Source: an uncultured Acidobacteriota bacterium (GTDB taxonomy: Bacteria; Acidobacteriota; UBA6911; RPQK01; JAPXNP01). Taken from it: DNA of 64,000 bases. The notes below the pieces were generated by a model. That model was not told the origin of the DNA. It saw nothing but the letters and a program-made list of their open reading frames with translations, and did not search any database. Positions 3,011 to 15,396 of the stretch are shown here, piece by piece. The translations under genes were made by a program, and so were the position numbers. The first letter of the stretch is position 1. Each line of letters opens with the position of its first letter. Location of the stretch: positions 288,001-352,000 of the forward strand of contig CAVZRV010000010.1 of assembly GCA_963777605.1 (NCBI GenBank), in the 5' to 3' direction.

Positions 3011-3265
3011 CTATTCGAGGGACTTGGTCAAGCGAGACTTGTAACGCGCGGCGGCATTGGCATGTATCACGCCTTTCTGGGCCGTCTTGTCGATGATTGA
3101 GAAGACCGTGGGAAGTAGTGCCCGAGCCTCGTCCGCCTTGTTCTCCGAAACCAGGCTCCGGAACTTCTTGATCTCAGTCCTCATCCTCGACCGCTTGCTG
3201 CGATTGGCCTGGCGCCGTTTCCGGTCCTGCCGCATTCGCTTGATGGCCGACTCAATATTCGGCAT
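3011..3265 (-). CDS. rpsT: 30S ribosomal protein S20
   Basis: MPNIESAIKRMRQ...KGVIHANAAARYKSRL. Start trimmed to the ATG at 3265. Confidence 0.97.
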   Translation of the reverse strand: MPNIESAIKRMRQDRKRRQANRSKRSRMRTEIKKFRSLVSENKADEARALLPTVFSIIDKTAQKGVIHANAAARYKSRLTKSLE

Positions 3266-3341
3266 AACAGAATACTCCTGAATCTTAGGAACAACTAAAT
3301 GCGCAAATTCGTAAAGAGAGAAATTATAGGGATCTCCGTCC

Positions 3342-4274
3342 TCAGGTGTCAATGATGACCCGTTCAAGGTGGATCCGGCCCAGGGCACCGGAAGTCTTCA
3401 CCAGCCGCTCCGATTCCCTGAGACGGAGCAGGAGATCGACCAACCGTTCCCGGGAATAGCTCCGGATCTCCCTTTCCCGCCCCTTGAAGCTCCACAGCTT
3501 CAACTCCTTGATCGAGTTCATGAAGTTTTTCCGCCGATCAAGCCGTTCCTTCAGAACCAGAACCCGTTTGAAGCTCCAGTACAACAAGGAGAGTAGCTGG
3601 GGCTCCCGAACCCCGGAGTCGAACAGGCTCTGAAGCAGGTGAAGAGCCCGGATTCGATCCCGGTTCGCCAGGGCGCCGATCAGATCGAAAACCTCGTGTT
3701 CTCGACCCGCTACCGCCAGCTTGAACACCGAGTCGACGGTAATCTTCTTACTTTCCCACTCCCACAGGATCAGCTTTTCCAATTCCATCTCCAACTGCTG
3801 GAGATCTTCTCCGACCAACTCAATGAGAAGGCTGGAGGCATCCGGAGCAATTGCAAAGCCCTCTTTACGGGCCTTGCCAGAAAGCCAACTCCGGACACCT
3901 TTGCCGGTGTCCAGACTGACAACGGGGAGTTTCTTGGGCCATCCGGCCGCCTTGCGGCTGCACGCCAGGACCATTACGGTGCGATCGGATGGTTTCTCGA
4001 GGTAGGCCTTAAGCTCACTGTCCCCCTTTTCCCCGCTCCTGACAAAGATCCAGCGACGGGGGCTCATCCAGGGGAGAGTGCGGGCCCTCGACACGACCGC
4101 CTCGGTCCCTTCACTCTCAATGTCATGATCAGACCAGTCGAATGTCCGGGCCGACTCGTCGATTTGCGACCTGCAATGCTCCAGGACACGATCCCTGAGA
4201 TAAGTCTGGTCGGTCATCAACAGGTAGACTGTTTCCGGATCGGCGGTTGATTTGACGAAGTCGGAGAAGTCCAC
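3342..4274 (-). CDS. holA: DNA polymerase III delta subunit
   Basis: TLPWMSPRRW, DLQQLEMELEKL and VFDLIGAL pattern. Position next to lptE and rpsT is typical. Confidence 0.85.
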   Translation of the reverse strand: MDFSDFVKSTADPETVYLLMTDQTYLRDRVLEHCRSQIDESARTFDWSDHDIESEGTEAVVSRARTLPWMSPRRWIFVRSGEKGDSELKAYLEKPSDRTVMVLACSRKAAGWPKKLPVVSLDTGKGVRSWLSGKARKEGFAIAPDASSLLIELVGEDLQQLEMELEKLILWEWESKKITVDSVFKLAVAGREHEVFDLIGALANRDRIRALHLLQSLFDSGVREPQLLSLLYWSFKRVLVLKERLDRRKNFMNSIKELKLWSFKGREREIRSYSRERLVDLLLRLRESERLVKTSGALGRIHLERVIIDT

Positions 4275-4285
4275 AGCAATCCTTG

Positions 4286-4804
4286 CTAGAAACCCTCGAG
4301 AATCGAAACGACGACACTCTCGGCGAAATCGTTGGCAATCCGTTGAAGAGCGGGATTCATTTCGGAGAAGAAGTTCTCTACATCGACGTTCACAATGTAT
4401 TGTTCACGAAAGATGTACTGGTCGTTCTTGAAGAGGACCGCACCCGTCCGCCGGTCAGTGAGTTCGATGCCGGCGTAGACCGTAACCAGCACGGTCGAAG
4501 CAAATGCCGTGCGGGCAAACGTCACCGGGTTGGCCGTCACCCGGATGACCCGCCCTTTGAGAACGGCATCCGCCTGCGAATTGCCACTGACGACGTCGTA
4601 ATTGGTCCGCTCAACGAGTTCGGAAACAAGCGCCCGCGTCAGGATCTGCTCGACCTTGTAGGTCGTTGTCTGATTCTTAAGCGGCTCGACGTCGATGGTG
4701 TGAATCGGCTGTGGCAACCGGTTCTTTGAAGCCACCCGGTACCCGCACCCGCAAAGCCCAACCACCATGACGACAGCCAACGCGGTGCGTTTCATCTTCG
4801 GCAT
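4286..4804 (-). CDS. lptE: LPS-assembly lipoprotein LptE-like
   Basis: Lipobox LCGC followed by GYR. Adjacent to holA. TGATG overlap with the dcd stop. Confidence 0.8.
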   Translation of the reverse strand: MPKMKRTALAVVMVVGLCGCGYRVASKNRLPQPIHTIDVEPLKNQTTTYKVEQILTRALVSELVERTNYDVVSGNSQADAVLKGRVIRVTANPVTFARTAFASTVLVTVYAGIELTDRRTGAVLFKNDQYIFREQYIVNVDVENFFSEMNPALQRIANDFAESVVVSILEGF

Positions 4805-5373
4805 CACTCCCGCTCGCTGTCGACTTTCGAAAGCACTATGCCTTTCTGCGCCTGGTATTTCCCCCTGCGGTCACGGTAAGAGACAGTGCAGATCTCGTCC
4901 GCAGAAAAGAAAACGAGCTGGGCGATGCCTTCTCCAGCGTAGAGCCGGACCGGTGACGGGCCCGTGTTTGAAATCGCCATCGTCACGTGTCCCTCCCACT
5001 CAGGCTCGAACGGCGTGACGTTCACCAGGATTCCGCAACGGGCGTAGGTCGACTTGCCGCTGCAAAGGGTCAAAATATCGCGAGGTATCCGAAAGTATTC
5101 GACCGACTTCGCCAAGAGGAAAGAGCCGGCCGGGACAATGCAGGAGTCGCCCTCGAAGTCCTCGAACAGGCCTCCGTCAACCCCCTTGGGATCAACAACG
5201 TCGGAACCGTTGCCGCGGAAGATCTTGAACTGACGATCGACCCGGAAATCGTATCCGTACGAGGATGGTCCGAAAGAGATCGAGCCGGCCTTCACGAGCG
5301 TGTCCACAAAGGGCTCGATCATCCCCTGTTCCCTTGCCATCTCGACGATCCAATGGTCCGGTTTGACTCCCAT
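4804..5373 (-). CDS. dcd: dCTP deaminase
   Basis: Motifs [36 protein letters not shown]. Confidence 0.96.
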
Positions 5374-5462
5374 ATTCAAGGCCGGATTCTACCATACCGG
5401 GGGCTTCCCCTCCCCGGGACGAGGACTGCCCAACTCGCCGGATAAAAGGCGGAAGAGAGGCT

Positions 5463-6221
5463 TCACGGGGACTTCCGATGCGGCTCGAGGAGCCGCTCAA
5501 CCATCTCTGCCAACCCGGCATAGGCTTCGGAGCACTCTCTGTGGCGCGCATCAGCGACCGCCCCTTCGATCCCGGCCCCCTGCTTTGCCTGCGCCCCCTC
5601 AAGATGGCAGATCAAAGACTCGCGCCGCGCGGGGTTCAACGCGCCGCGCGCCGGCTCTCCGGAAGATTGTTGAGGTGGTTCCACATTCTGCTCCGCCAGG
5701 GCTTCGAGAACCGCTTCTCTTCTCCCGAGCAGGTTGACCGACAGGTACAAGGCCAACGCGTCGGCCAGGTCTTCTTCCGACCGGTCTCCCGAGCTCAGCT
5801 TGAACAGATCGATAAGGGCATGCCCAATCTCGTGACAGATAACGAACGTGATCGCGCCTTCGTAAAGGTGGTCCCGTTCGGCAGACTCCGGGCTGGGAGT
5901 CCCGGACTCCGGCAGAAGTTGCATGGCATAGGGGATCGAGATCGTCCTCGCCAAGGGATCGTAGTAGGGTCCCATCGAACCCAGCCGGATCGTGACCGAC
6001 ACCGGCAGATCCGTGCTCATTGTGACGGCCTGGGAGATGTCATTGAGCAACTTTGAACGTTGCAGGAATGCATGGACCTCGATCTCTCTCGGCCCCTGTG
6101 GTGGAAGGTAATCCAGCCGGATGTTGGCCGCCTGCACGATCCCAGGGACCAGGAAAACGACTGCGGCGGCCGATGTCACGACCGCGAGGGGGACCACCTT
6201 GCACAAACGGATCATCCACAT
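5463..6221 (-). CDS. Secreted putative zinc metallopeptidase (DUF4344-like)
   Basis: N-terminal hydrophobic segment, HEIGHALI zincin motif and downstream EEDLAD. Start uncertain. Confidence 0.7.
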   Translation of the reverse strand: MWMIRLCKVVPLAVVTSAAAVVFLVPGIVQAANIRLDYLPPQGPREIEVHAFLQRSKLLNDISQAVTMSTDLPVSVTIRLGSMGPYYDPLARTISIPYAMQLLPESGTPSPESAERDHLYEGAITFVICHEIGHALIDLFKLSSGDRSEEDLADALALYLSVNLLGRREAVLEALAEQNVEPPQQSSGEPARGALNPARRESLICHLEGAQAKQGAGIEGAVADARHRECSEAYAGLAEMVERLLEPHRKSP

Positions 6222-6331
6222 CGTCCCGACCTTCCGGTCAAGGTTCCTGAAGCTGCAGCCGCGGTCAAATCTCCCCGGCCGGTTCATCCTTGTCGCACCG
6301 AACCGACTGGAAGCCGGCGCACCCGGCCCGG

Positions 6332-7630
6332 CTAGACCTCCGGATACTCCCACGGAGATCGATAGTCCCGACGCAGCAACCGGTTGGCCTCGTCGTCACC
6401 CGGTACCCGCTCGCTACTGCCGTCCCAATTCACACTCCGGCCAAGCTTCAGCGACAGCATTCCCAGGAGGCTCATGGTCGTCGAGCGGTGCCCGATTTCA
6501 ATGTCGCAAACCGGGGTCCGACCGGTATCGATCGAATCGATAAAATCGGCCCAGAGTTCCGGGATATTCTGCTGATCGGGTTCATGAAGCCGCGGTTCCC
6601 GGTGAACCGGAGGCTCTCCCTTCTTACGCGGATAAAAGGTCCAGCCGTCCAGCCACCCCATGTGGAAGACACCTTCGGTCCCGTAGAAGAAACATCCGAA
6701 TTGATGCGGCTGCTCCGGATTGCCTCCGAACATCCGATGTTCCCACTCGACCGTAAACCCATCGAAATCGAAGGTTGCCACCTGCGTGTCGGGAGCATCG
6801 GAGGCATCCCGCAGGATGTGGCGACCTCCCGTTGAATAGATGCGCGAGGGGAATTTCTGCTCGGTCCACCAGAGGATCTGGTCCAGCCAGTGAATTCCCC
6901 AATCGCCGAGAGTACCGTTGGCATAGTCGAGAAAATTGCGAAAGCCCCGGGGATGGATTTGGGGATTGAAGCGGCGATAGGGAGCAGGGCCGCACCACAT
7001 GTCCCAGTCCAACCCTGCCGGCGCGTCGCGGTCCGCCTGGGCTTCCCCTGCGGAATCCCGGCCGTTGTAGACGAAGGCCCGAACCAGGCTGACCCGGCCG
7101 ACTCTGCCGGATTTCAGGAACTCCATCCCGGATATGTTGTGGGGAGAAACCCGCCTGTGGGTTCCGACCTGGACCGTCCGGCCGGCCTTTCGGGCGGCCT
7201 TGACCATGGCCCGGCCTTCCAGAATCGTGTGACCGATCGGTTTCTCCACGTAGACGTGGGCACCGCTTTCCACTGCCGCAATCGTGATCAGCGGATGCCA
7301 GTGGTCAGGAGTCGCGACGATGACGACCTCGGGTTTCTGCTCCTTCAACAGTTCCCGGAAATCGCGATACGACCGCGGTGCGCTTCCGGTGAGTTGAGTG
7401 ACCTTCTCGAGTCCTGGTTTGAGCTGACGTTCATCGACGTCACACATAGCCACGACGCGGCTTCGGCCGGCTGCAATCGCCGATCCCAGGATATTCATTC
7501 CCCACCAGCCTGTGCCGATCAAAGCGGTGGACATCACCCGCCCTTCAGCCCGGCCAAAAACAGGTGTTCCGAGGGCAACTCCTCCCGCCATCGCGGCCCT
7601 CACGAAATCCCGGCGATTCAGTTTCCCCAT
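6332..7630 (-). CDS. Tat-exported Gfo/Idh/MocA oxidoreductase
   Basis: Twin-arginine NRRDFV signal, IGTGWWG, ATPDHWH, YVEKP, DWGIHWLD. GGAGGAG RBS before ATG 7630. Confidence 0.9.
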   Translation of the reverse strand: MGKLNRRDFVRAAMAGGVALGTPVFGRAEGRVMSTALIGTGWWGMNILGSAIAAGRSRVVAMCDVDERQLKPGLEKVTQLTGSAPRSYRDFRELLKEQKPEVVIVATPDHWHPLITIAAVESGAHVYVEKPIGHTILEGRAMVKAARKAGRTVQVGTHRRVSPHNISGMEFLKSGRVGRVSLVRAFVYNGRDSAGEAQADRDAPAGLDWDMWCGPAPYRRFNPQIHPRGFRNFLDYANGTLGDWGIHWLDQILWWTEQKFPSRIYSTGGRHILRDASDAPDTQVATFDFDGFTVEWEHRMFGGNPEQPHQFGCFFYGTEGVFHMGWLDGWTFYPRKKGEPPVHREPRLHEPDQQNIPELWADFIDSIDTGRTPVCDIEIGHRSTTMSLLGMLSLKLGRSVNWDGSSERVPGDDEANRLLRRDYRSPWEYPEV

Positions 7631-7640
7631 CACTCCTCCT

Positions 7641-8411
7641 CTAATGCATGACTTGCCCACCACAGATGTTATAGGCCTGCCCCGTGATGTTCCTCGCCTC
7701 CTCGGAAACCAGGAAGCGCACCAGCCCGGCAACCTCTTCAGGCTCGATCATGCTATTGAGCGGAACGTGACGCAAGGCCGCTTCTCGAAACTCCGTGTAG
7801 GTTCTGCCGGATTCCTCGGCAAGGCGCTCCATGACCGACTTCGCCATTTCCGTCTCAACCCAACCCGGGCAAAGAGCATTCGCGGTGATCTTCCGGGGCG
7901 CCAATTCCAGCGCCGCGGTCCGGACGAGTCCGATCAGCCCGTGCTTGGCTGCGCTGTAACCGGCCGACCCGGGAGCTCCAAACTTACCGGTGACCGACGA
8001 GATGTAGATCATGCGACCGCCGTCCGGCATGTGTGCCAGCACCCGAGTGGTCAGGTAGTACGGAGCGTCCAGGTTGGCTGCCAGGATGTCGCGCCAGGCT
8101 GCGTCGTCAGGGCGATCCAGCGGCGTCGGGCCAGTCGAGCCTGCGTTGTTGACGAGAATGTCGATCTGGCCGAAGCGTTCGACAACGCGGCCAACGAAGT
8201 TATCGATGTCGACTGGCTTGCAAACGTCACAGGGAACAGTGAGCACGTCGACTCCAGCCGAGGCCAGGTCACGGGCGGCGTCGGTGAGTCTCCCCACGCT
8301 TCTGCCACAAATCGCGACCTTCGCACCGTCAAGGCCAAGGCGACGCGCAATCGCCAGACCGATTCCCGCACTCCCTCCCGTAATCAGAGCGGATTTTCCG
8401 GTAAGTTCCAT
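7641..8411 (-). CDS. Short-chain dehydrogenase/reductase
   Basis: TGGSAGIG, NNAG, YSAAK, PGWVET. Start trimmed to MELTGK. Confidence 0.92.
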   Translation of the reverse strand: MELTGKSALITGGSAGIGLAIARRLGLDGAKVAICGRSVGRLTDAARDLASAGVDVLTVPCDVCKPVDIDNFVGRVVERFGQIDILVNNAGSTGPTPLDRPDDAAWRDILAANLDAPYYLTTRVLAHMPDGGRMIYISSVTGKFGAPGSAGYSAAKHGLIGLVRTAALELAPRKITANALCPGWVETEMAKSVMERLAEESGRTYTEFREAALRHVPLNSMIEPEEVAGLVRFLVSEEARNITGQAYNICGGQVMH

Positions 8412-8473
8412 TGGACTAACTATAACCCAGTCCATCCGGCATGGTTGACTCCCGCCGTTCCTTGCAGTAATCA

Positions 8474-9535
8474 GTGAACATGTTTCCCTCGCGGATCGAT
8501 CGAGTTCCTCCGGTGGGTCGAGCCTTCCTCTATCTATTCGTGCTGTCGTTGGCGCCTTCGGTCCCGGTCGTGGCGCAGCAACGGAGTCCGCTCGACGATT
8601 TGCCGTCCAATATCCGCATCCTGACTCAGTTCGGCGAGCGTGCCGTCTGGTCCCCGGACGGAACGCGAGTCGCGTTCGTCCATCGAACGCTGGGCGACGC
8701 GTTCGAGGTCGAGGTCGCAACCGGATCGATCAAATGCCTGACCTGTACCTTTAAGAACGCAGGCTTCTTCCGGGTTCACTACCTCCCCACCGGTGATTAC
8801 ATCCTGATCGGGCCCGTTGAGTCCACCGACCCCCAGCAGGCCCGATGGAACCGCGCGGCCCTCTGGTTTCTGGACAGGAATCGTCAACGACCTCCGGTCA
8901 GCCTCAACCGGAGACTCAACGAGGGGATCGCCACATCAAAGACTTCTCCAACCATTGCCTGGTCCGAGAGTTCCAGCCAGTACCCGGATCGTATACCTGA
9001 GGGCGTCTCGCGACTGATGACCGGAGAGGTCCTTAGCGATTCCAGTGGACCGCACCTGGTCAACATCAGACTGGTGCACCAGGACAAGTGGCCCCACTGC
9101 TGGCTGGAAGCCCAGGACTTTCGTCGAGACGACGCTGAACTGATCTATTCCTGTTACCAACCCGAAACCAAGGCAGACGTCATGGGAGTTGACCTTGCCT
9201 CGGGCAGGACGACCAACTACACGGCGTCCCCCGGAGTCTATGACGAGCCCGAGGGAATCTTCCCCGATGGCCAGTACACCACGGTCGAATCCGACCGGCA
9301 GAACCCAAGGGGAGATCACTACGTCGACATCTGGAAACTCCGCCTCGACAGCATGGGCGCGGATTACCAGCGTCTTACGCACTTCACCGATTACGACGGG
9401 TACAAGGCATCCAACCCCACGATCAGCCCAGACGGCCGGTTCATGGCCTTTCAGTTGGCCATGTCAAAAGACGAGGCCGGAGTGGGATACGGAATCCTGA
9501 TCATGGACTTGGCCGCAAAGTCGGGCACGCGATGA
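8474..9535 (+). CDS. Secreted TolB-like/PD40 beta-propeller protein
   Basis: Signal peptide and repeats of WSPDG, IFPDG and ISPDG type. Confidence 0.7.
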   Translation: MNMFPSRIDRVPPVGRAFLYLFVLSLAPSVPVVAQQRSPLDDLPSNIRILTQFGERAVWSPDGTRVAFVHRTLGDAFEVEVATGSIKCLTCTFKNAGFFRVHYLPTGDYILIGPVESTDPQQARWNRAALWFLDRNRQRPPVSLNRRLNEGIATSKTSPTIAWSESSSQYPDRIPEGVSRLMTGEVLSDSSGPHLVNIRLVHQDKWPHCWLEAQDFRRDDAELIYSCYQPETKADVMGVDLASGRTTNYTASPGVYDEPEGIFPDGQYTTVESDRQNPRGDHYVDIWKLRLDSMGADYQRLTHFTDYDGYKASNPTISPDGRFMAFQLAMSKDEAGVGYGILIMDLAAKSGTR

Positions 9536-9790
9536 GGTTGCCGTCCGGAAGGCAATCGTGACCACGGCCCTTCACGGGTTCCGAGAAGCCAACTGAAACA
9601 AATCCTGCAAGTTGCCGACAACCAGCCCAACCGCGCTAGCCCAATCTCCCGTGCCTCCTCCCGTCAGATTTCGAAAAGTCAAACCAGAGTTGGACTATTT
9701 CTCATGCCCCACCTTGACTTTTTTCCTTCCGAAATCCCTCCAACTCGAACAAGTCCCATGAAATTAATGTCTTATGAAATCTTCAAGAAT

Positions 9791-9806
9791 TGGAACGGGA
9801 CCTGCG
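9791..9806 (+). promoter_or_regulatory. Candidate sigma54 (-24/-12) promoter for the peptide operon
   Basis: TGGAACGGGACCTGCG has the GG-N10-GC spacing of TGGCACG-N4-TTGC and lies about 65 nt upstream of the peptide start. Confidence 0.4.
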
Positions 9807-9871
9807 ATAACAGCCGGTTGACAGTGCCCCGGCCAGGGGACACGAACAGAAACCCAAACAGGAGGTGTGAA

Positions 9872-10093
9872 GTGAGAAGAAAGGTCATCGCGTTACTCGT
9901 CCTACTAATCCTGCCATTCCTGATGGCAGCCCCAGCAGCCGTGCCAGTCAGCGCTGACTGGGGCTACGCATACGCCAAGATGGGCATGTCTGACTTCGAA
10001 TTGGGCGTTTGGAGTGTTGGCACAGGGATCATGTGTGCCATGTCCTTCACAGGAGTAGCCGGTATCGGCTGTGTAGTATCCTCTGCCCTCTAA
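9872..10093 (+). CDS. 73-aa secreted peptide precursor (putative circular-bacteriocin-like RiPP precursor)
   Basis: GGAGG RBS at 9861 and GTG start. Sequence MRRKVIALLVLLILPFLMAAPAAVPVSA|DWGYAYAKMGMSDFELGVWSVGTGIMCAMSFTGVAGIGCVVSSAL. First gene of the Yip1/SpoIIM/ABC operon. Confidence 0.7.
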   Translation: MRRKVIALLVLLILPFLMAAPAAVPVSADWGYAYAKMGMSDFELGVWSVGTGIMCAMSFTGVAGIGCVVSSAL

Positions 10094-10110
10094 TGGATTG
10101 AAGGGGTTCT

Positions 10111-10752
10111 GTGAAGCTTACATTCGTATTTGAACCTTGGCACTACTTCGAATCAAAGCTTAGTCTAAGGCCAAATTGGATAGTCGCAGCCGCGGGTCCC
10201 CTTCTCTGCTTCCTTCTGCATTGGTTCTCCTTCTGTGTTATTCACAACAAACTCACACATCAAGTTGAAACAGACCTTGGCGATCGGCTGGCAGTCCTAA
10301 TATCAGCTAAATGGATCTATGTGATGGATTTCTTTGGAGCAGCAGGTTATGTCCTTATGCCAATTTTCGCAGCTACCATTGTGGCCTGTGTCGATATCCT
10401 TGCCCGGCAACCGAAGAAGTTGGATCGCTTCTTCGAATTCACCGGACTAAGTTTCTATAGTCTTTTACCCTATCTGCTTTCAGTGCTCTTACTAGCTCTC
10501 GCCTTTGATCCTCCCGCAATGAAGGCCGTCGGCCCAATCTCGAATGAAGATATTCGTTCCACTATTCAAGATTTTATGATCAGCGTCCGAGCAACGCCAA
10601 CTATCCTCTTGATCACGAATTTAGGCATCCTTTTCGATGGTTGGCTGGCAATTTTGATCGCCAATTCGTATCGAAGTGTTAACCAGTGTTCCCGAACAGC
10701 CTCGATTGCCACCTCAATCGGAGTCTTCGGGATGATTGTCCTCACGACTTGA
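10111..10752 (+). CDS. Yip1-like multi-pass membrane protein
   Basis: N-terminal F-x-F-E-P-x-x-YF...RPNW pattern, about 5 hydrophobic segments and a YSLLP motif. Similar in layout to the Yip1 protein at 30460. Confidence 0.6.
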   Translation: MKLTFVFEPWHYFESKLSLRPNWIVAAAGPLLCFLLHWFSFCVIHNKLTHQVETDLGDRLAVLISAKWIYVMDFFGAAGYVLMPIFAATIVACVDILARQPKKLDRFFEFTGLSFYSLLPYLLSVLLLALAFDPPAMKAVGPISNEDIRSTIQDFMISVRATPTILLITNLGILFDGWLAILIANSYRSVNQCSRTASIATSIGVFGMIVLTT

Positions 10753-10759
10753 GGAGAAC

Positions 10760-11290
10760 ATGAAAGACCTCCGTAATTTGGTCCTAATTAACATCTCAAT
10801 TCTCGGCGCCGCAGTTTTTCTGGGGATAGTGCTTGGATGGGATTCCGCAGGTCTCTTCACGATACAAGAACCTAAGTGGATGGGATTCTCAACCGCGCTC
10901 CAAGACTTTGTAAGAATTTCTCTGAATAACCTTTTCCTAGTCAGTCTCGCAGTAGTAGGCGCCGTTACTTTTGGGACGATGTCCATCGCCATCGTGATCT
11001 GGAACGGTCTATTCTTAGGATTCAATTTACCTACGATTGCTGCGCTGGGCATTCAAGAAGCCGGCTATCTCGTCCTCTACCTGCCGCTTGAATTTCTGGG
11101 AATCTGCATGGCAGCGACCGTAGGTGAATCCGCAGGCTGGTGGCTGTTCCGCTCTCTTATAAGCCCTACCCCTCCGGATTATGGAAGTTGGAGAGGCACC
11201 GTTGGACTTGCGAAGACTTCTGCTCTTCTCATTCTTGCTTCGGCTGGACTCGAGACGACCGCAAAGATAATTCGGAATTATGGAACCTAA
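10760..11290 (+). CDS. Stage II sporulation protein M / DUF95 membrane protein
   Basis: GAGGAG RBS. Family pattern I-x-x-NN...G-x-x-T-F-G...NG-x-x-LG...x-x-x-LE...A-x-x-x-G...A-x-LE. Confidence 0.8.
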   Translation: MKDLRNLVLINISILGAAVFLGIVLGWDSAGLFTIQEPKWMGFSTALQDFVRISLNNLFLVSLAVVGAVTFGTMSIAIVIWNGLFLGFNLPTIAALGIQEAGYLVLYLPLEFLGICMAATVGESAGWWLFRSLISPTPPDYGSWRGTVGLAKTSALLILASAGLETTAKIIRNYGT

Positions 11291-11780
11291 ATTACGATCC
11301 AAGTGGAAGAGGCTGGACCACCGCGCCGCATTTCTGGCTTTGGGCGTGACATTGGCCGTGCTCGCATCAGCGGGAGCCCTGATCCATCCTCACCCACCAG
11401 ACCGGGAGAATCTCTCTGGAATTATGTGCGTTGATCTTGACGGGAACTCCAGGGAGTGCACTCAAGTCATGGGAAACAAATCCCTTCTAGTTTTCAGTGT
11501 CTTCTGCACAAATTGCCGGGATCTCATCTCAGAGATTCCGCGCTCTGAGAAACTGGTCGGAATCAGCTCTCACTCTCTCCCCTATTTGCGCTATTACCGA
11601 ATCAAGCTGGGGATTCGGTGGCCGATCGTGCGTGTTGAAAAGCCCGTACTCCGCGAAATTGGGGTAACCACGCTGCCTACGCTACTCAGACTTGACGCCA
11701 ACGGGAAAATCGTGTCCCGTCTAACTGGAAAGGCGAACATCCTATCGGCGATTCGACTGCTTCATGAGGACCAACGATAA
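11280..11780 (+). CDS. Membrane-anchored thioredoxin-fold (TlpA-like) thiol-disulfide oxidoreductase
   Basis: N-terminal TM segment, LLVFSVF-CTNC, and cis-Pro loop region GVTTLPTLLRLDANGKIV. Confidence 0.8.
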   Translation: MEPKLRSKWKRLDHRAAFLALGVTLAVLASAGALIHPHPPDRENLSGIMCVDLDGNSRECTQVMGNKSLLVFSVFCTNCRDLISEIPRSEKLVGISSHSLPYLRYYRIKLGIRWPIVRVEKPVLREIGVTTLPTLLRLDANGKIVSRLTGKANILSAIRLLHEDQR

Positions 11781-12646
11781 TGGCCACACTTCGAATCTCA
11801 GATCTGGTCAAGCGATTTCCGAAATTCCAACTTGGACCGATCAACTTCGAGCTAACCCCCGGGACAGCCTGCGGTCTGCTTGGGCCAAACGGGGCGGGCA
11901 AGTCCACGCTGATGAACTGCATCGCGGGGCAACTTACGCCTGATGAAGGGAAGGCTAGTTGGGATGACACGCCCCTCACCCGTCGAAACTGGAAGATCCG
12001 CGAACGCGTCGGATACGTACCGGAGCAGAGCCGCATGTACGACTCCGTGACAGTCGCTCAGACTCTCCTTCTATGTTCCAAGATATACGCACAGTGGGAC
12101 AGCAGATTTGTGTCAGATTGGCAACAACGATTCCAACTCGACGGGATTAAGAAGGTTGGGAATCTGTCAAAGGGCATGCGCACGAAACTGCAACTGCTTG
12201 TTGGGTTGGCACACGGTTCAGAACTCTTGCTCTTGGATGAGCCTACAGCAGGCTTGGATCCCGATGCCCGTGTCGACCTTCAGCATTATATTCGTCAACT
12301 GATCAAGGCAAAGAGCGCGTGTGCCATCATCTCATCACATCTCTTTGAGGACATCGAGACCATGGCTAGTCACGTCAAGATTATCCGTGCAGGACGAATC
12401 GTATTCGACCTCGCGACCACTGAACTTCCTGGGCTGAGGCTTTTTCGAGTTATTTCCGGAGCTGCCTCCAAGAGCAAGGTCTCAGAGCTGGCCCTTCTAG
12501 CGTCTCACAATCAGGATGGGGACCTTCTGTTGCTGGCCCCCGAATCGGCAAAACCAATGATAGAGAGGCAATGTCCAGAATGTTTCATCACGGCTGAGAC
12601 GATCAGCTTAAAACAGATATATTTTCTAACCAAGAACGAGTCCTGA
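11780..12646 (+). CDS. ABC transporter ATP-binding subunit (peptide/drug exporter type)
   Basis: Walker A GPNGAGKST, signature LSKGM, Walker B LLLDEP, SSH switch. TAATG coupling to the upstream gene. Confidence 0.95.
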   Translation: MATLRISDLVKRFPKFQLGPINFELTPGTACGLLGPNGAGKSTLMNCIAGQLTPDEGKASWDDTPLTRRNWKIRERVGYVPEQSRMYDSVTVAQTLLLCSKIYAQWDSRFVSDWQQRFQLDGIKKVGNLSKGMRTKLQLLVGLAHGSELLLLDEPTAGLDPDARVDLQHYIRQLIKAKSACAIISSHLFEDIETMASHVKIIRAGRIVFDLATTELPGLRLFRVISGAASKSKVSELALLASHNQDGDLLLLAPESAKPMIERQCPECFITAETISLKQIYFLTKNES

Positions 12647-12649
12647 TTC

Positions 12650-13300
12650 ATGAGACACGTATTCATTCTGATTGCCAAGGAACTATTCATACACCGCCTT
12701 GAATTGTCTATATCAACGGCAGGAATTTCAGGAATCGCTATATTTGCGTTCCAAATGAGATCTCCGGAAACCTACACGCAAGGTCTTGTAATCATTTCTA
12801 TGCTCAATGTTGCTCTAATGATGGCCTCGACAGAGTGGCTTTCTTACATGGAGCGGGCTAAGGGAACCTTTCTCTGGCTTCGTACGCTTCCTGTTTCGGA
12901 CAAAGCAGTAGTCACTGCAAAATTCGTTACGAACGGGATAATTCTCACTTGCTGCTACCTCTCAGCTGTCTTAATCCTGAATCTACATGTCGCTGTTGAG
13001 CGCCTGCTTCCAGTTATCGCATTCTGGTTGGGATTGCTTTCTCTTGGATCCTTTATGCTCTTCACTAAGCTCGTGTTGAGCCGGCGGCTCGGGCCGAGCG
13101 TCCCGCTGATGGTAGTCTTCGTTCTCATGATGGGTTGGAGGGCACTCTCCACTCGAGCACCCCACGCGGCGTCGATGGTGTCTAGTTTCCTTTCGAATCC
13201 CTTTGTCTTCATCACGCTCGAGGTTCTCTCAATCCTGTCCTTCTGGTACATGATGTGGATCTGGATTGCCTCCCGAGACACTCACAAACTAATCGACTGA
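12650..13300 (+). CDS. ABC-2-type permease
   Basis: About 6 TM segments and ERAKGTFLWLRTLPVS...VTAKF motif. Directly follows the ATPase. Confidence 0.85.
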   Translation: MRHVFILIAKELFIHRLELSISTAGISGIAIFAFQMRSPETYTQGLVIISMLNVALMMASTEWLSYMERAKGTFLWLRTLPVSDKAVVTAKFVTNGIILTCCYLSAVLILNLHVAVERLLPVIAFWLGLLSLGSFMLFTKLVLSRRLGPSVPLMVVFVLMMGWRALSTRAPHAASMVSSFLSNPFVFITLEVLSILSFWYMMWIWIASRDTHKLID

Positions 13301-13326
13301 CCGGACCTCTCGGATCTCTGTCTTGA

Positions 13327-13353
13327 GGTCCCAGCGGTCCTTTGGGTCCCATT
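13327..13353. repeat. Degenerate 9-bp tandem (GGTCCYnnn x3)
   Basis: GGTCCCAGC GGTCCTTTG GGTCCCATT, at the right edge of the low-GC operon. Confidence 0.45.
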
Positions 13354-13514
13354 TTCCCGGTTCTTGAGACCGCGACGGGACCGTGGGGCTTCTGATGAAA
13401 TGGATATCTTTGCCTCTCCACAATCGGCCGCCCAACCGGGCGCGGCTTTCCCTGACCCCTGGCCCTTGATTGAAATCAGTTCCTGGCCGGTCGATACTGG
13501 GATTGCAGGGGCAC

Positions 13515-13946
13515 ATGAAAATGAAGCAACCATCCTGGCTGGAAGAACTCGATCACACGGCTGACGCAGGCATTGTCGTCTCCGCCGGAAATCTCTCCGA
13601 ACTTTTCGAGCGGACGGCATGGGCGATGTTCAACCTGATCCTCGACATGGATGTGGTTCGACCCGTCGAGCAGGAATCGATGGCAGTGGAAGGATCCGAC
13701 CTGGAGGACTTGATGGTTCGCTGGCTCTCGGAACTCAACTATCGGCACATCACCAGAGCCAGAGTGTTTGGCGGCTTTCGAGTCAAAGAGATTAACGAGC
13801 GGTCCCTGCGCGCGGACATTCAAGGAGAGGCGATTGCCCCTGGTCGCCACTCCGTCTTCGCCGAAATCAAAGCCGTTACCTATCATGGACTCAGTATCAT
13901 CGCGACTGATCGCGGGTTTCAGGCTAGAGTAATCTTTGATCTGTGA
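13515..13946 (+). CDS. Archease
   Basis: N-terminal DHTAD and C-terminal EIKAVTYHGL...VIFDL are archease hallmarks. Directly upstream of rtcB. Confidence 0.95.
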   Translation: MKMKQPSWLEELDHTADAGIVVSAGNLSELFERTAWAMFNLILDMDVVRPVEQESMAVEGSDLEDLMVRWLSELNYRHITRARVFGGFRVKEINERSLRADIQGEAIAPGRHSVFAEIKAVTYHGLSIIATDRGFQARVIFDL

Positions 13947-13953
13947 GGCAGCC

Positions 13954-15396
13954 ATGGCAGACATAACCCTCGTCAAGCGGACTGACTTCTGCTGGGAAAT
14001 TCCTCCCCGGGGCGGGATGCGTGTTCCGGCCAGGATTTACGCGACCGAGCAAATGGTCGATGCCATCCTCTCGGACAATGCTCCTCAACAGGCGATGAAC
14101 GTCGCTCACCTGCCCGGCATCGTGAAGGCGTCGCTCGCCATGCCGGATATCCACTGGGGATACGGCTTCCCGATTGGAGGCGTGGCCGCATTCGATCCCG
14201 ACGAGGGGGTGATCTCCCCGGGCGGAGTCGGCTACGACATCAACTGCGGCGTCCGCCTCATGGCAACCCACCTGGAACTCAGTGCCGTCAAACCGAAGAT
14301 CAAGGCTCTGATGCAGGACCTCTACATCCAGATTCCGACCGGCGTCGGCGCCTCGGTGCCGCAAAAGGTGAGCCGGAAAGAACTCGAGCACGTGGTCCAG
14401 GAAGGAGCCGGCTGGGCAGTCAAGAACGGACTCGGCGAGCGCGCTGACCTTGACCTCATCGAAGAATGCGGCTGCATCCGGCAGGCCGATCCCGGGCAAG
14501 TCTCGGAACGGGCGTGGGAACGGGGTTTTGCCCAACTCGGCACGCTCGGATCTGGCAACCATTTTCTGGAAGTGGGCTACGTTGCCGAGATCTACGATCG
14601 GGACGCAGCACAGGTCCTGGGCCTGCAGGAAGACCAGGTCACGGTGATCATTCACTGCGGCTCCCGCGGTTTCGGGTACCAGGTCTGCGATGATTTTCTC
14701 GCGCTCATGGACAAGGCGGCCCGAAAATACGGAATCGAATTGCCCGACCGCCAACTGGCTTGTGCACCAGTCCAATCCGAAGAGGGACAGGCGTACCTGG
14801 GTGCCATGCGCTGCGCCATCAACTACGCATTCGCAAACCGCGAGGTCATCGCCCAGCGGGTCCGCGAGTCGTTCCTCAGGGCCCTCTCAATCTCGCCGCG
14901 CGATCTCGGCGCGCGCACCGTCTACGAGGTCGCCCACAACATCGCGAAGTTCGAACAGCACGAGGTTAGCGGGAAGAATCGCATGCTCTGCGTCCATCGC
15001 AAGGGCGCCACGCGGGCGTTCGGTCCCGGTGAGCGCGAGATCCCGGAACGCTACCGGTCGGTCGGGCAACCCGTCCTCGTACCGGGTGACATGGGTCGTT
15101 ACTCCTACGTCCTGGTCGGCACCAGCCAGGCAATGGAGGAGACTTTCGGAAGTACCTGTCACGGCGCAGGCCGGGCCATGAGCCGCCACAAGGCGATAAA
15201 GGCGGCACGCGGCCGGGATATCAGCCGTGAACTGGAGAGCAAGGGGATTTTCGTGATTGGCCACAGCAATAGAACGCTGGCCGAAGAGATCTCCGACGCG
15301 TACAAGGATGTTTCGGAGGTGGTGGACGCGTGTCAGGGAGCCGGGATTTCCCGAAAGGTCGCACAGTTGAGGCCCATCGGATGCATTAAAGGTTGA
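13954..15396 (+). CDS. rtcB: RNA 2',3'-cyclic/3'-phosphate--5'-OH ligase RtcB
   Basis: MPDIHWGYGFPIGG, GVGYDINCG, GTLGSGNHF, HCGSRG, HRKGATR, STCHGAGR. Confidence 0.97.
   Translation: MADITLVKRTDFCWEIPPRGGMRVPARIYATEQMVDAILSDNAPQQAMNVAHLPGIVKASLAMPDIHWGYGFPIGGVAAFDPDEGVISPGGVGYDINCGVRLMATHLELSAVKPKIKALMQDLYIQIPTGVGASVPQKVSRKELEHVVQEGAGWAVKNGLGERADLDLIEECGCIRQADPGQVSERAWERGFAQLGTLGSGNHFLEVGYVAEIYDRDAAQVLGLQEDQVTVIIHCGSRGFGYQVCDDFLALMDKAARKYGIELPDRQLACAPVQSEEGQAYLGAMRCAINYAFANREVIAQRVRESFLRALSISPRDLGARTVYEVAHNIAKFEQHEVSGKNRMLCVHRKGATRAFGPGEREIPERYRSVGQPVLVPGDMGRYSYVLVGTSQAMEETFGSTCHGAGRAMSRHKAIKAARGRDISRELESKGIFVIGHSNRTLAEEISDAYKDVSEVVDACQGAGISRKVAQLRPIGCIKG

Follow-up and report, generated by a model that had tools for sequence, protein, structure and literature searches.

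Organization of the operon

The subject of this report is a six-gene operon located at positions 9872-13300 of a 64,000-nucleotide stretch of DNA from an uncultured Acidobacteriota bacterium (contig CAVZRV010000010.1), which is referred to below as the window. All six genes lie on the plus strand and, according to the open reading frame (ORF) list, form a tight operon. They encode a small hydrophobic precursor peptide, a Yip1-like protein, a SpoIIM/DUF95-family protein, a thioredoxin-fold protein, and the ATP-binding protein and permease of an ATP-binding cassette (ABC) transporter.

The peptide gene (9872..10093, 73 amino acids (aa)) starts with GTG, 6 nt after a Shine-Dalgarno sequence, AGGAGG, that was read from the sequence at 9860..9865 on the same strand. 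It is followed by the genes for the Yip1-like polytopic membrane protein (10111..10752, 213 aa), the SpoIIM/DUF95-family membrane protein (10760..11290, 176 aa), the thioredoxin-fold protein, which has a CTNC motif and an N-terminal membrane anchor (11280..11780, 166 aa), the ABC transporter ATP-binding protein of the DrrA/PmtA/GldA-like ABC-2 type (11780..12646, 288 aa), and the ABC-2 family permease (12650..13300, 216 aa). With the SpoIIM start at the ATG of position 10760, the intergenic gaps in gene order are 17, 7, -11, -1, and 3 nt; the ORF list also contains an alternative TTG start at 10736 on the plus strand, which would give a protein of 184 aa (10736..11290). A preliminary description of the locus had reported six co-oriented genes that overlap or are separated by 17 nt or less, and the ORF coordinates bear this out. 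It had also seen no small immunity ORF, and there is indeed no space within the operon for an extra small ORF. Its assignment of the host to the Acidobacteriota agrees with the contigs of three relatives, which are Acidobacteriota metagenome-assembled genomes.

The precursor peptide and its family

By the conservation of its product across homologues, which rules out a chance ORF, the peptide gene is real, and it founds a new family. The window precursor begins with an RRK n-region that is followed by a hydrophobic h-region and AxA-type sites, APA|A and VSA|D, and residues 1-22 or 1-28 constitute a Sec-type signal peptide. The core (DW...SSAL, encoded at 9956-10090) is 45 aa long, hydrophobic, and conserved, and it contains Cys55 and Cys67. 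The same layout is found throughout the family, in which a Sec-type signal peptide (M-x-K/R-R-K and then a hydrophobic run) is followed by a linker of 0 to ~35 residues and then by the core.

A core profile of 44 positions was searched with hmmsearch against 1.84 billion representative proteins and gave 37 matches at E <= 0.001, five of them at E <= 1e-10. These comprise 35 proteins of 57-108 aa, one 306-aa SpoIIM and peptide read-through, and one 2396-aa protein that was taken as a spurious family member. The profile match ends at most 4 residues from the C-terminus of the protein in 36 of the 37 cases. Weak peptide-profile matches in the genomes G296, G067, G297, and G398 (E 4.5e-4 to 9e-3) lie in frames of 3308, 642, 658, and 102 aa and were also taken as spurious.

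The statistics of the core were compiled from 39 aligned sequences; the sole member without a Cys pair (L044, which is P0042) and a few truncated or aberrant sequences were excluded. The cores are 41-46 aa long and start with an aromatic residue, which is Trp in 33, Tyr in five, and Phe in one of them, and Gln precedes this residue in 15 of the 39. Both Cys residues are invariant (39 of 39), with a spacing of 10 residues in 32 cores, 11 in six, and 12 in one, and the tail after the second Cys is exactly 6 residues long in all 39. Net charge ranges from -4 to +1 and the grand average of hydropathicity (GRAVY) from 0.67 to 1.45, and Ala and Gly together account for 37% of the residues. A scan of 32 members against Pfam revealed no family common to them at E <= 10.

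An AlphaFold2 (AF2) model of the window core, built with the family alignment, has a predicted local distance difference test score (pLDDT) of 77.6 and contains helices at residues 2-8, 13-30, and 34-44. Both Cys residues lie in the last two helices, and the model suggests a disulfide-stapled helical hairpin. Foldseek gave no match of this model to the PDB at E <= 10. The nearest database sequence to the window peptide shares 84% identity with it and is encoded on a 3.6-kb JGI contig, where the SpoIIM protein is 83% identical to that of the window.

Two other assignments of the precursor were considered and rejected. A match to DUF3309 (19.1 bits) is below the cut-off, spans the signal peptide, and was not found in the 31 other members. 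A lipoprotein was rejected because there is no canonical lipobox; the LNC of the L009/L010 type, read from the sequences, has Asn at -1.

Observations on unusual family members may be added. The 306-aa protein of the representative library (P0075) has a SpoIIM-like N-terminal half that reads into a complete precursor; it is either a read-through call or a real fusion, and it implies the order SpoIIM followed by peptide at another locus. Locus L046 (G284:C1:3273000-3290000) contains three paralogous precursor genes at 3251-3520, 6189-6455, and 8030-8287. Two of these paralogues have aberrant C-terminal halves with altered Cys spacing and charged residues, and they may be degenerate or diversified.

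Membrane proteins and the ABC exporter

The gene identities proposed in the preliminary description hold for all six genes, those of the Yip1-like and thioredoxin-fold proteins as probable assignments, and most of the weak Pfam matches of the window proteins themselves are backed by their orthologues. The Yip1-like protein matches PF04893 over residues 29-209 with 15.9 bits against a cut-off of 28.6 (E 0.013). Among five of its relatives, two score above the cut-off (38.8 and 33.3 bits), two score below it (22.8 and 13.2 bits), and one has no match. With tblastn, orthologues of the Yip1-like protein were recovered from the related loci at E values between 1e-8 and 5e-15. In genome G012 (locus L009), the Yip1-like gene is split on the minus strand into ORFs at 7593-7988 and 7988-8251, of 87 and 131 aa, through a frameshift or an assembly error.

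The ORF at 10760 is a member of the PF01944 SpoIIM/DUF95 family, as the preliminary description had predicted; its own score lies 4.5 bits under the cut-off, and those of its orthologues lie above it. The window protein reaches 22.4 bits against a cut-off of 26.9 (E 1.3e-4) and aligns to profile positions 5-159 (155 of 163 aligned), and all five relatives that were scanned exceed the cut-off with 28.8-52.0 bits. Precomputed PF01944 annotations are present on 37 of 39 database relatives of the window protein. In the ESM Atlas, 28 of the 30 nearest clusters are SpoIIM, with a top score of 0.91 and 214 shared features.

An AF2 model of the SpoIIM protein based on 49 sequences (pLDDT 91.2, predicted template modelling score 0.86) has five helices at residues 2-29, 46-70, 73-96, 98-134, and 144-174. 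I53, N57, G72, G87, E111, and E165 are invariant columns, and N82 is nearly invariant. The N-termini of the family are basic and the loop between helices 4 and 5 is rich in Lys and Arg in the relatives, and we infer from these two properties a topology with the N-terminus inside and the C-terminus outside. In this arrangement, N57, N82, E111, and E165 would each be about 9-14 residues away from the periplasmic end of its helix. Structural comparison of the model with the PDB gave a best Foldseek match at E 0.35 with a template modelling score of 0.36; VIA-align wide gave a best Z of 6.9 to generic helical bundles, which is within the noise for helical models, and the only match of the SpoIIM profile to PDB sequences had an E of 0.72; no clue to function emerged from these comparisons. 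A complex prediction of SpoIIM with the peptide core, run without controls, scored 0.00 against a mark of 0.32 and was counted neither for nor against binding. The SpoIIM protein of locus L049 had no tblastn match in a plasmid collection.

The ATPase matches PF00005 with 102.3 bits, the only clear Pfam match among the operon proteins of the window. Its best NCBIfam matches are PmtA, GldA, and DrrA, each below the equivalog cut-off, and its orthologues are 38-52% identical across all related loci. Pfam found no peptidase domain on it. The permease matches PF13346 (ABC2_membrane_5) over 197 of the 205 profile positions with E 6.6e-5 and 23.0 bits against a cut-off of 25; nine of ten locus permeases match this family, and two of the ten are above the cut-off. 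By these family matches, the adjacent ATPase and PF13346 permease constitute an ABC-2 type exporter.

Thioredoxin and the oxidative folding capacity of the host

The thioredoxin-fold protein of the window has weak matches to Thioredoxin_2 of Pfam (E 0.069) and to ResA of NCBIfam (E 0.0055). An alignment of five orthologues shows an N-terminal hydrophobic anchor, an invariant S-x2-C-x2-C motif, a Pro at the cis-Pro position, and a conserved Gly. Their profile matches PDB entries weakly, namely the thiol:disulfide interchange protein 3or5 (E 6.7e-4) and ResA 4nmu (E 5.7e-3). The domain is predicted to be periplasmic because a basic N-terminus is followed by a hydrophobic segment.

The thioredoxin gene is restricted to loci of the family of the window, that is, the window itself, L008, L009, L010, and L051. 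In four genomes with a thioredoxin-bearing module (G000, G007, G010, and G012), neither VKOR (PF07884) nor DsbB (PF02600) was found, with 0 of 4 for each. VKOR was found in all six genomes with a thioredoxin-less module (G236, G254, G284, G351, G374, and G144), and DsbB in one of the six. A DSBA-family domain was found in five of five genomes tested. L044, the member without the Cys pair, has a thioredoxin-less locus, and five loci with the Cys pair are also without thioredoxin. A dedicated oxidoreductase standing in for an absent general re-oxidation pathway would be in keeping with this pattern, which is, however, a single lineage-level association. As a separate observation, the family of the window may lack the usual quinone-linked route of disulfide re-oxidation, since VKOR occurs in two of 16 of its genomes and DsbB in none of four, and the six genomes from other families are all VKOR-positive.

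Distribution of the module in Acidobacteriota

The preliminary description had suggested looking across Acidobacteriota for the same gene set with short Cys-pair peptides, and this set recurs in other genomes; homologous peptides also stand upstream of homologous operons, so the prediction of a conserved upstream peptide is sustained. Among 40 related genomes, a SpoIIM-like gene was detected in three of the 15 that belong to the same family and in one of the 25 from the same order. Genomes G012 (L009) and G007 (L010) and the metagenome contig L051 carry, in this order, the peptide, Yip1, SpoIIM, thioredoxin, permease, ATPase, and permease; the L051 contig ends at the ATPase, and its final gene lies outside the contig. 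G082 showed weak synteny only.

In a sample of 401 genomes of the phylum, the SpoIIM profile matched in 32, a count that includes one unpublished genome, G182, which enters no other result. The ten strongest of these matches (E <= 4e-12) include six loci from other families (G236, G374, G284, G254, G351, and G144), at which SpoIIM, ATPase, permease, and Yip1 are clustered in variable order and a homologous small ORF adjoins them. The peptide, a SpoIIM-like protein, an ABC ATPase, and a permease occur together in 8 of the 401 genomes. A Yip1-like protein is encoded at seven of these eight peptide-bearing loci, the ORF of G007 falling short of the Pfam Yip1 threshold. Strong matches of the peptide core (E <= 8.4e-16) were likewise found in 8 of the 401, all adjoining a SpoIIM-like gene; these are the loci behind the profile, and the search shows that no further genome has the peptide and is not an independent test of co-occurrence. 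Of the scans for related loci, the one of metagenome contigs gave a single locus, L051, and the one of genome contigs gave only three loci that had already been found; both rest on one short pattern, and their yield says little on the true range.

The GC content of the operon is 0.505, compared with 0.607 in the upstream flank, 0.598 in the downstream flank, and 0.582 in the whole window. Dips in GC of ~4-15 points are also seen at loci L008, L009, L010, and L051. The operon is probably accessory and horizontally acquired.

Two conserved proteins accompany the module at some of these loci. A soluble protein of 407-410 aa, for which Pfam has no match, is encoded after Yip1 at L045:7839-9062, L046:4641-5873, and L049 ~10561-11796. 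The loci concerned (G374, G284, and G144) have precursors with long linkers of 47-54 residues that end in PQ|W or AQ|W, and a query with this protein did not find it in G000, G007, G236, G254, or G351. The protein may serve the long-leader forms as an additional maturation factor. At L009 (9115-9957, plus strand) and L051 (313-1152, minus strand), the peptide gene has a conserved, divergently oriented ORF of 279-280 aa next to it.

Comparison with circular bacteriocins and other peptide systems

Circular-bacteriocin clusters are recognized by a precursor together with a DUF95/SpoIIM protein and a protein that binds ATP (PMC8534725, PMC8659200). DUF95 is named as the class-defining protein of these clusters (PMC11580447), and a role in both leader cleavage and ligation has been suggested for it (PMC13463998). 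Many of the clusters include Yip1, and several precursor copies are present in some (PMC8659200). A matching cluster architecture is also described in bioRxiv 10.1101/2025.10.31.685828. Mined precursors come almost exclusively from Firmicutes (6,925), with two from Actinobacteria and one from Thermotogae (PMC8534725). The published signature invoked in the preliminary description, a precursor with DUF95/SpoIIM and an ABC ATPase, often with Yip1, and with characterized loci from Firmicutes, is thus upheld by PMC8534725, PMC8659200, PMC11580447, and bioRxiv 10.1101/2025.10.31.685828.

The operon of the window agrees with this architecture in its gene set, since the SpoIIM gene is located two genes downstream of the precursor and an ABC ATP-binding protein is encoded. 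Its closest parallels in gene-set architecture among the clusters described are those of the pumilarin, altitudin A/S, and cerecyclin type with Yip1. A hydrophobic helical product, the absence of a C-terminal extension, and several precursor copies in some clusters (here L046) are further common points. The known circular cores are 58-70 aa long and adopt a saposin-like fold of 4-5 helices (PMC7132975), with a maximum of 82 aa in altitudin S (bioRxiv 10.1101/2025.10.31.685828), and PMC7132975 and PMC13463998 describe known circular bacteriocins as having no Cys pairs or disulfides. The acidobacterial precursor differs from them in length (cores of 41-46 aa against 58-82 aa), in helix number (3 in 45 residues in the AF2 model), in its invariant Cys pair, which in the lineage of the window is joined by a thioredoxin gene, and in family similarity. 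Its leader is of the Sec type, which these sources do not describe for circular bacteriocins, and its host is a diderm acidobacterium, whereas known circular-bacteriocin clusters come almost entirely from Bacillota. The operon also lacks a large As-48B/CycB-like membrane protein and a small immunity protein. Judged from gene content and sequence, the machinery matches that of circular-bacteriocin clusters, but the peptide does not match theirs. The proposal that the locus is a diderm version of circular-bacteriocin machinery is therefore supported for the gene set and not supported for the peptide, which matches no circular family and has too short a core, a Cys pair, and a Sec leader. Full-text literature searches, whose coverage excluded most subscription journals, returned no description of this acidobacterial system.

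A functional analogy is offered by SDP of Bacillus, a 42-aa toxin with one disulfide against which the Yip1 protein YknW aids an ABC pump in protection (PMC4887032). The SDP/YknWXYZ system of Bacillus subtilis combines a hydrophobic peptide of ~42 aa that has a single intramolecular disulfide with Yip1 and ABC proteins that serve self-protection, and it is drawn on here as a functional analogy. YknXYZ is a MacB-type pump with a fusion protein, whereas the operon described here encodes an ABC-2 type pump and no fusion protein. The maturation of SDP reportedly proceeds via SdpA/SdpB and not via SpoIIM.

Class II microcins of the microcin V type are ribosomal peptides of diderm bacteria that are Gly/Ala-rich, hydrophobic, and non-cationic and have a C-terminal disulfide loop, and by this general description the acidobacterial peptide, with its predicted disulfide, can be likened to them in these properties. 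Microcins have a double-glycine leader and depend on a peptidase-domain ABC exporter, a fusion protein, and TolC. In the operon described here, the leader is of the Sec type and not of the double-glycine type, and an ABC-2 pump takes the place of the peptidase-domain exporter.

Proposed function and alternative explanations

The explanation that we favor, and to which we give roughly an even chance on the basis of sequence comparison, is that the operon produces a Sec-exported, disulfide-stapled, bacteriocin-like membrane peptide whose SpoIIM, Yip1, and ABC-2 partners would be responsible for its trimming and extraction and for the protection of the producer. The 73-aa precursor would be exported by Sec and cut by signal peptidase at APA|A or VSA|D, which would leave an anionic, Gly/Ala-rich peptide of 45-51 aa (isoelectric point ~4) on the outer surface of the inner membrane. 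The peptide would fold there as a helical hairpin, and the membrane-anchored periplasmic thioredoxin would form or proof-read the Cys55-Cys67 disulfide, stapling the two C-terminal helices. In the predicted topology, the conserved polar residues N57, N82, E111, and E165 of SpoIIM would lie toward that half of its five helices which faces the periplasm. SpoIIM/DUF95, Yip1, and the ABC-2 pump may then trim the peptide, extract it from the producer membrane, and protect the producer, by analogy with YknW, which acts with an ABC pump against SDP. We think that a linear stapled hairpin is more likely than a ring.

Several lines of evidence led to this explanation. The anatomy of the operon, with tight gaps or overlaps and a strong Shine-Dalgarno sequence, and the conserved module with its published circular-bacteriocin architecture speak for a peptide-producing unit of this kind. 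So do the properties of the 39 cores, namely their length, charge, GRAVY, Cys pair, and fixed tail, together with the helices of the AF2 model. The three precursor paralogues of L046 recall some circular-bacteriocin clusters (PMC8659200). The patchy distribution (8 of 401 genomes in the phylum and 3 of 15 in the family), together with the GC contrast, the pattern of thioredoxin and VKOR with the L044 member that lacks both the Cys pair and the thioredoxin, and the functional analogue SDP/YknW argue in the same direction.

Other observations weigh against this explanation. The cores are neutral to anionic, whereas most bacteriocins are cationic, and none of the 32 scanned members matches the cyclic-bacteriocin families PF12173 or PF09221 at E <= 10. 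Among the ORFs of the operon there is neither an outer-membrane export component nor a membrane-fusion protein, nor does any of them encode a separate small protein for immunity. The nearly equal identity of the peptide (84%) and SpoIIM (83%) in the closest relative indicates that the peptide does not diverge faster than its machinery, unlike many toxins. The genome G010 (L008) has SpoIIM, thioredoxin, ATPase, and permease without Yip1, and a genome-wide search with the family profile found no peptide in it, which indicates that the machinery can persist without the peptide and is not strictly tied to it. The pattern of thioredoxin and VKOR is confounded by phylogeny, all thioredoxin-bearing loci being from one family, and it is silent on whether the enzyme acts as an oxidase or a reductase. 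Unrelated contexts are also known for the SpoIIM family (PMC5898192).

Part of this evidence would also suit a small non-antimicrobial envelope or membrane protein that works inside the producer and belongs to a SpoIIM/Yip1/ABC-2 complex for envelope remodelling or other export, whether as its subunit, its cofactor, or a mimic of its substrate. SpoIIM is a membrane scaffold in Bacillus subtilis, and members of its family, beside other neighbours, are widely found in archaea and in bacteria that do not sporulate (PMC5898192). The anionic to neutral cores, the lack of outer-membrane export and separate immunity genes, the equal divergence of peptide and SpoIIM, and the machinery of G010 without a peptide are all in line with such a role. 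A housekeeping function fits poorly with presence in so few genomes of the phylum and the family, and the atypical GC, the one locus with three tandem precursor paralogues of which two are degenerate, and an architecture that matches peptide-toxin clusters also speak against it, so that this role appears rather unlikely. A truly circular peptide is an unlikely product as well. An outward-facing SpoIIM/DUF95 would cut before the conserved Trp or Tyr after Sec export and join the N-terminus to the C-terminus, giving a ring of ~40-45 residues with a disulfide. The gene set is that of circular-bacteriocin clusters, with a class-defining DUF95 for which cleavage and ligation are proposed (PMC13463998). 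The core always stands at the C-terminus of the protein, with the fixed 6-residue tail and without a C-terminal extension; conservation starts sharply at the aromatic residue (W 33, Y 5, F 1 of 39), often after Gln (15 of 39), and the linker that separates the core from the signal peptide varies from 0 to ~35 residues like a removed leader. Two of the six ESM Atlas clusters nearest to the precursor are cyclic-bacteriocin families, with scores of 0.80, which is a lead only. Against a ring stand the short cores with two or three helices in place of the 4-5-helix saposin-like fold of 58-70 aa (up to 82) (PMC7132975), the Cys pair and Sec-type leader, neither of which is described for known circular bacteriocins, and the lack of a sequence match to PF12173 or PF09221. 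Catalysis has so far been a proposal for any DUF95 protein, and the mature end of the short-linker members is achievable by signal peptidase alone. Circular products, doubtful as they are on sequence grounds, would be without precedent as circular bacteriocin-like peptides in a diderm phylum and, at ~40-45 residues, smaller than all others, with cyclization in the periplasm.

It is very improbable that the operon is a resistance module directed against foreign hydrophobic disulfide peptides, in which the thioredoxin would reduce the peptides, SpoIIM, Yip1, and the ABC proteins would expel them, and the encoded peptide would act as an inducer or decoy or be a remnant. Reduction is the typical activity of TlpA/ResA-like thioredoxins, which would suit such a module, as would the orphan G010 locus with SpoIIM, thioredoxin, ATPase, and permease. 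YknWXYZ, moreover, is a protection pump (PMC4887032). In the eight genomes with the peptide, however, its gene is always the first of the module or adjacent to it, and in the window it has a strong Shine-Dalgarno sequence. The Cys pair and the fixed C-terminus are also strongly constrained, which is unexpected for a remnant.

Significance of the system

The biochemical role of DUF95/SpoIIM in circular-bacteriocin clusters has so far only been proposed (PMC13463998). In a diderm phylum, the operon links the same membrane toolkit to a new peptide family that is well constrained and has a Sec leader and a predicted disulfide. If the machinery processes the peptide, export would be uncoupled from maturation, and the functions of DUF95 and Yip1 would be directly testable. 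If the peptide were a ring, export and ring closure would be physically separate, and the system would be the cleanest one for showing catalysis by DUF95. Acidobacteriota are abundant, poorly cultured soil bacteria, and small hydrophobic peptides of the kind encoded by the operon may represent a new class of natural products from this phylum.

Surroundings of the operon

The genes that flank the operon within ~3.5-5 kb encode a GFO/IDH/MocA oxidoreductase, a short-chain dehydrogenase/reductase, a PD40-repeat protein, archease, RtcB, and an S15 peptidase. No enzyme for peptides that are made ribosomally and modified after translation (RiPPs) is among them, which is consistent with the earlier remark that no radical S-adenosylmethionine, LanB/C/M, or YcaO gene is present. 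Rfam had no match in 9000-14000 at E <= 1, and the counts of promoters and terminators were at the level of shuffled sequence. A look-up of sequencing runs, RNA data included, gave none that cover 9700-13400. No empty insertion site could be demonstrated; the orthologues of the PD40 gene in G014 and G004 have other neighbours, without archease, RtcB, or the operon nearby. Directly downstream of the operon, the archease gene overlaps the start of the RtcB RNA ligase gene (13470-15396, Pfam 131 and 584 bits), and the two are an ordinary pair. A 19-nt inverted repeat that is 79% complementary (9831-9849 and 13446-13464) brackets the operon and may be due to chance; one arm is just upstream of the Shine-Dalgarno sequence of the peptide gene and the other lies 146 nt past the permease stop.

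At the orphan locus L008 (G010:C12:700000-715000), the module is located at 5168-7773 and 7894-9057. The gene directly upstream of it, in the same orientation, specifies a secreted protein of 387 aa, and a small ORF at 4792-5058 resembles, by eye, an excisionase-type DNA-binding protein.

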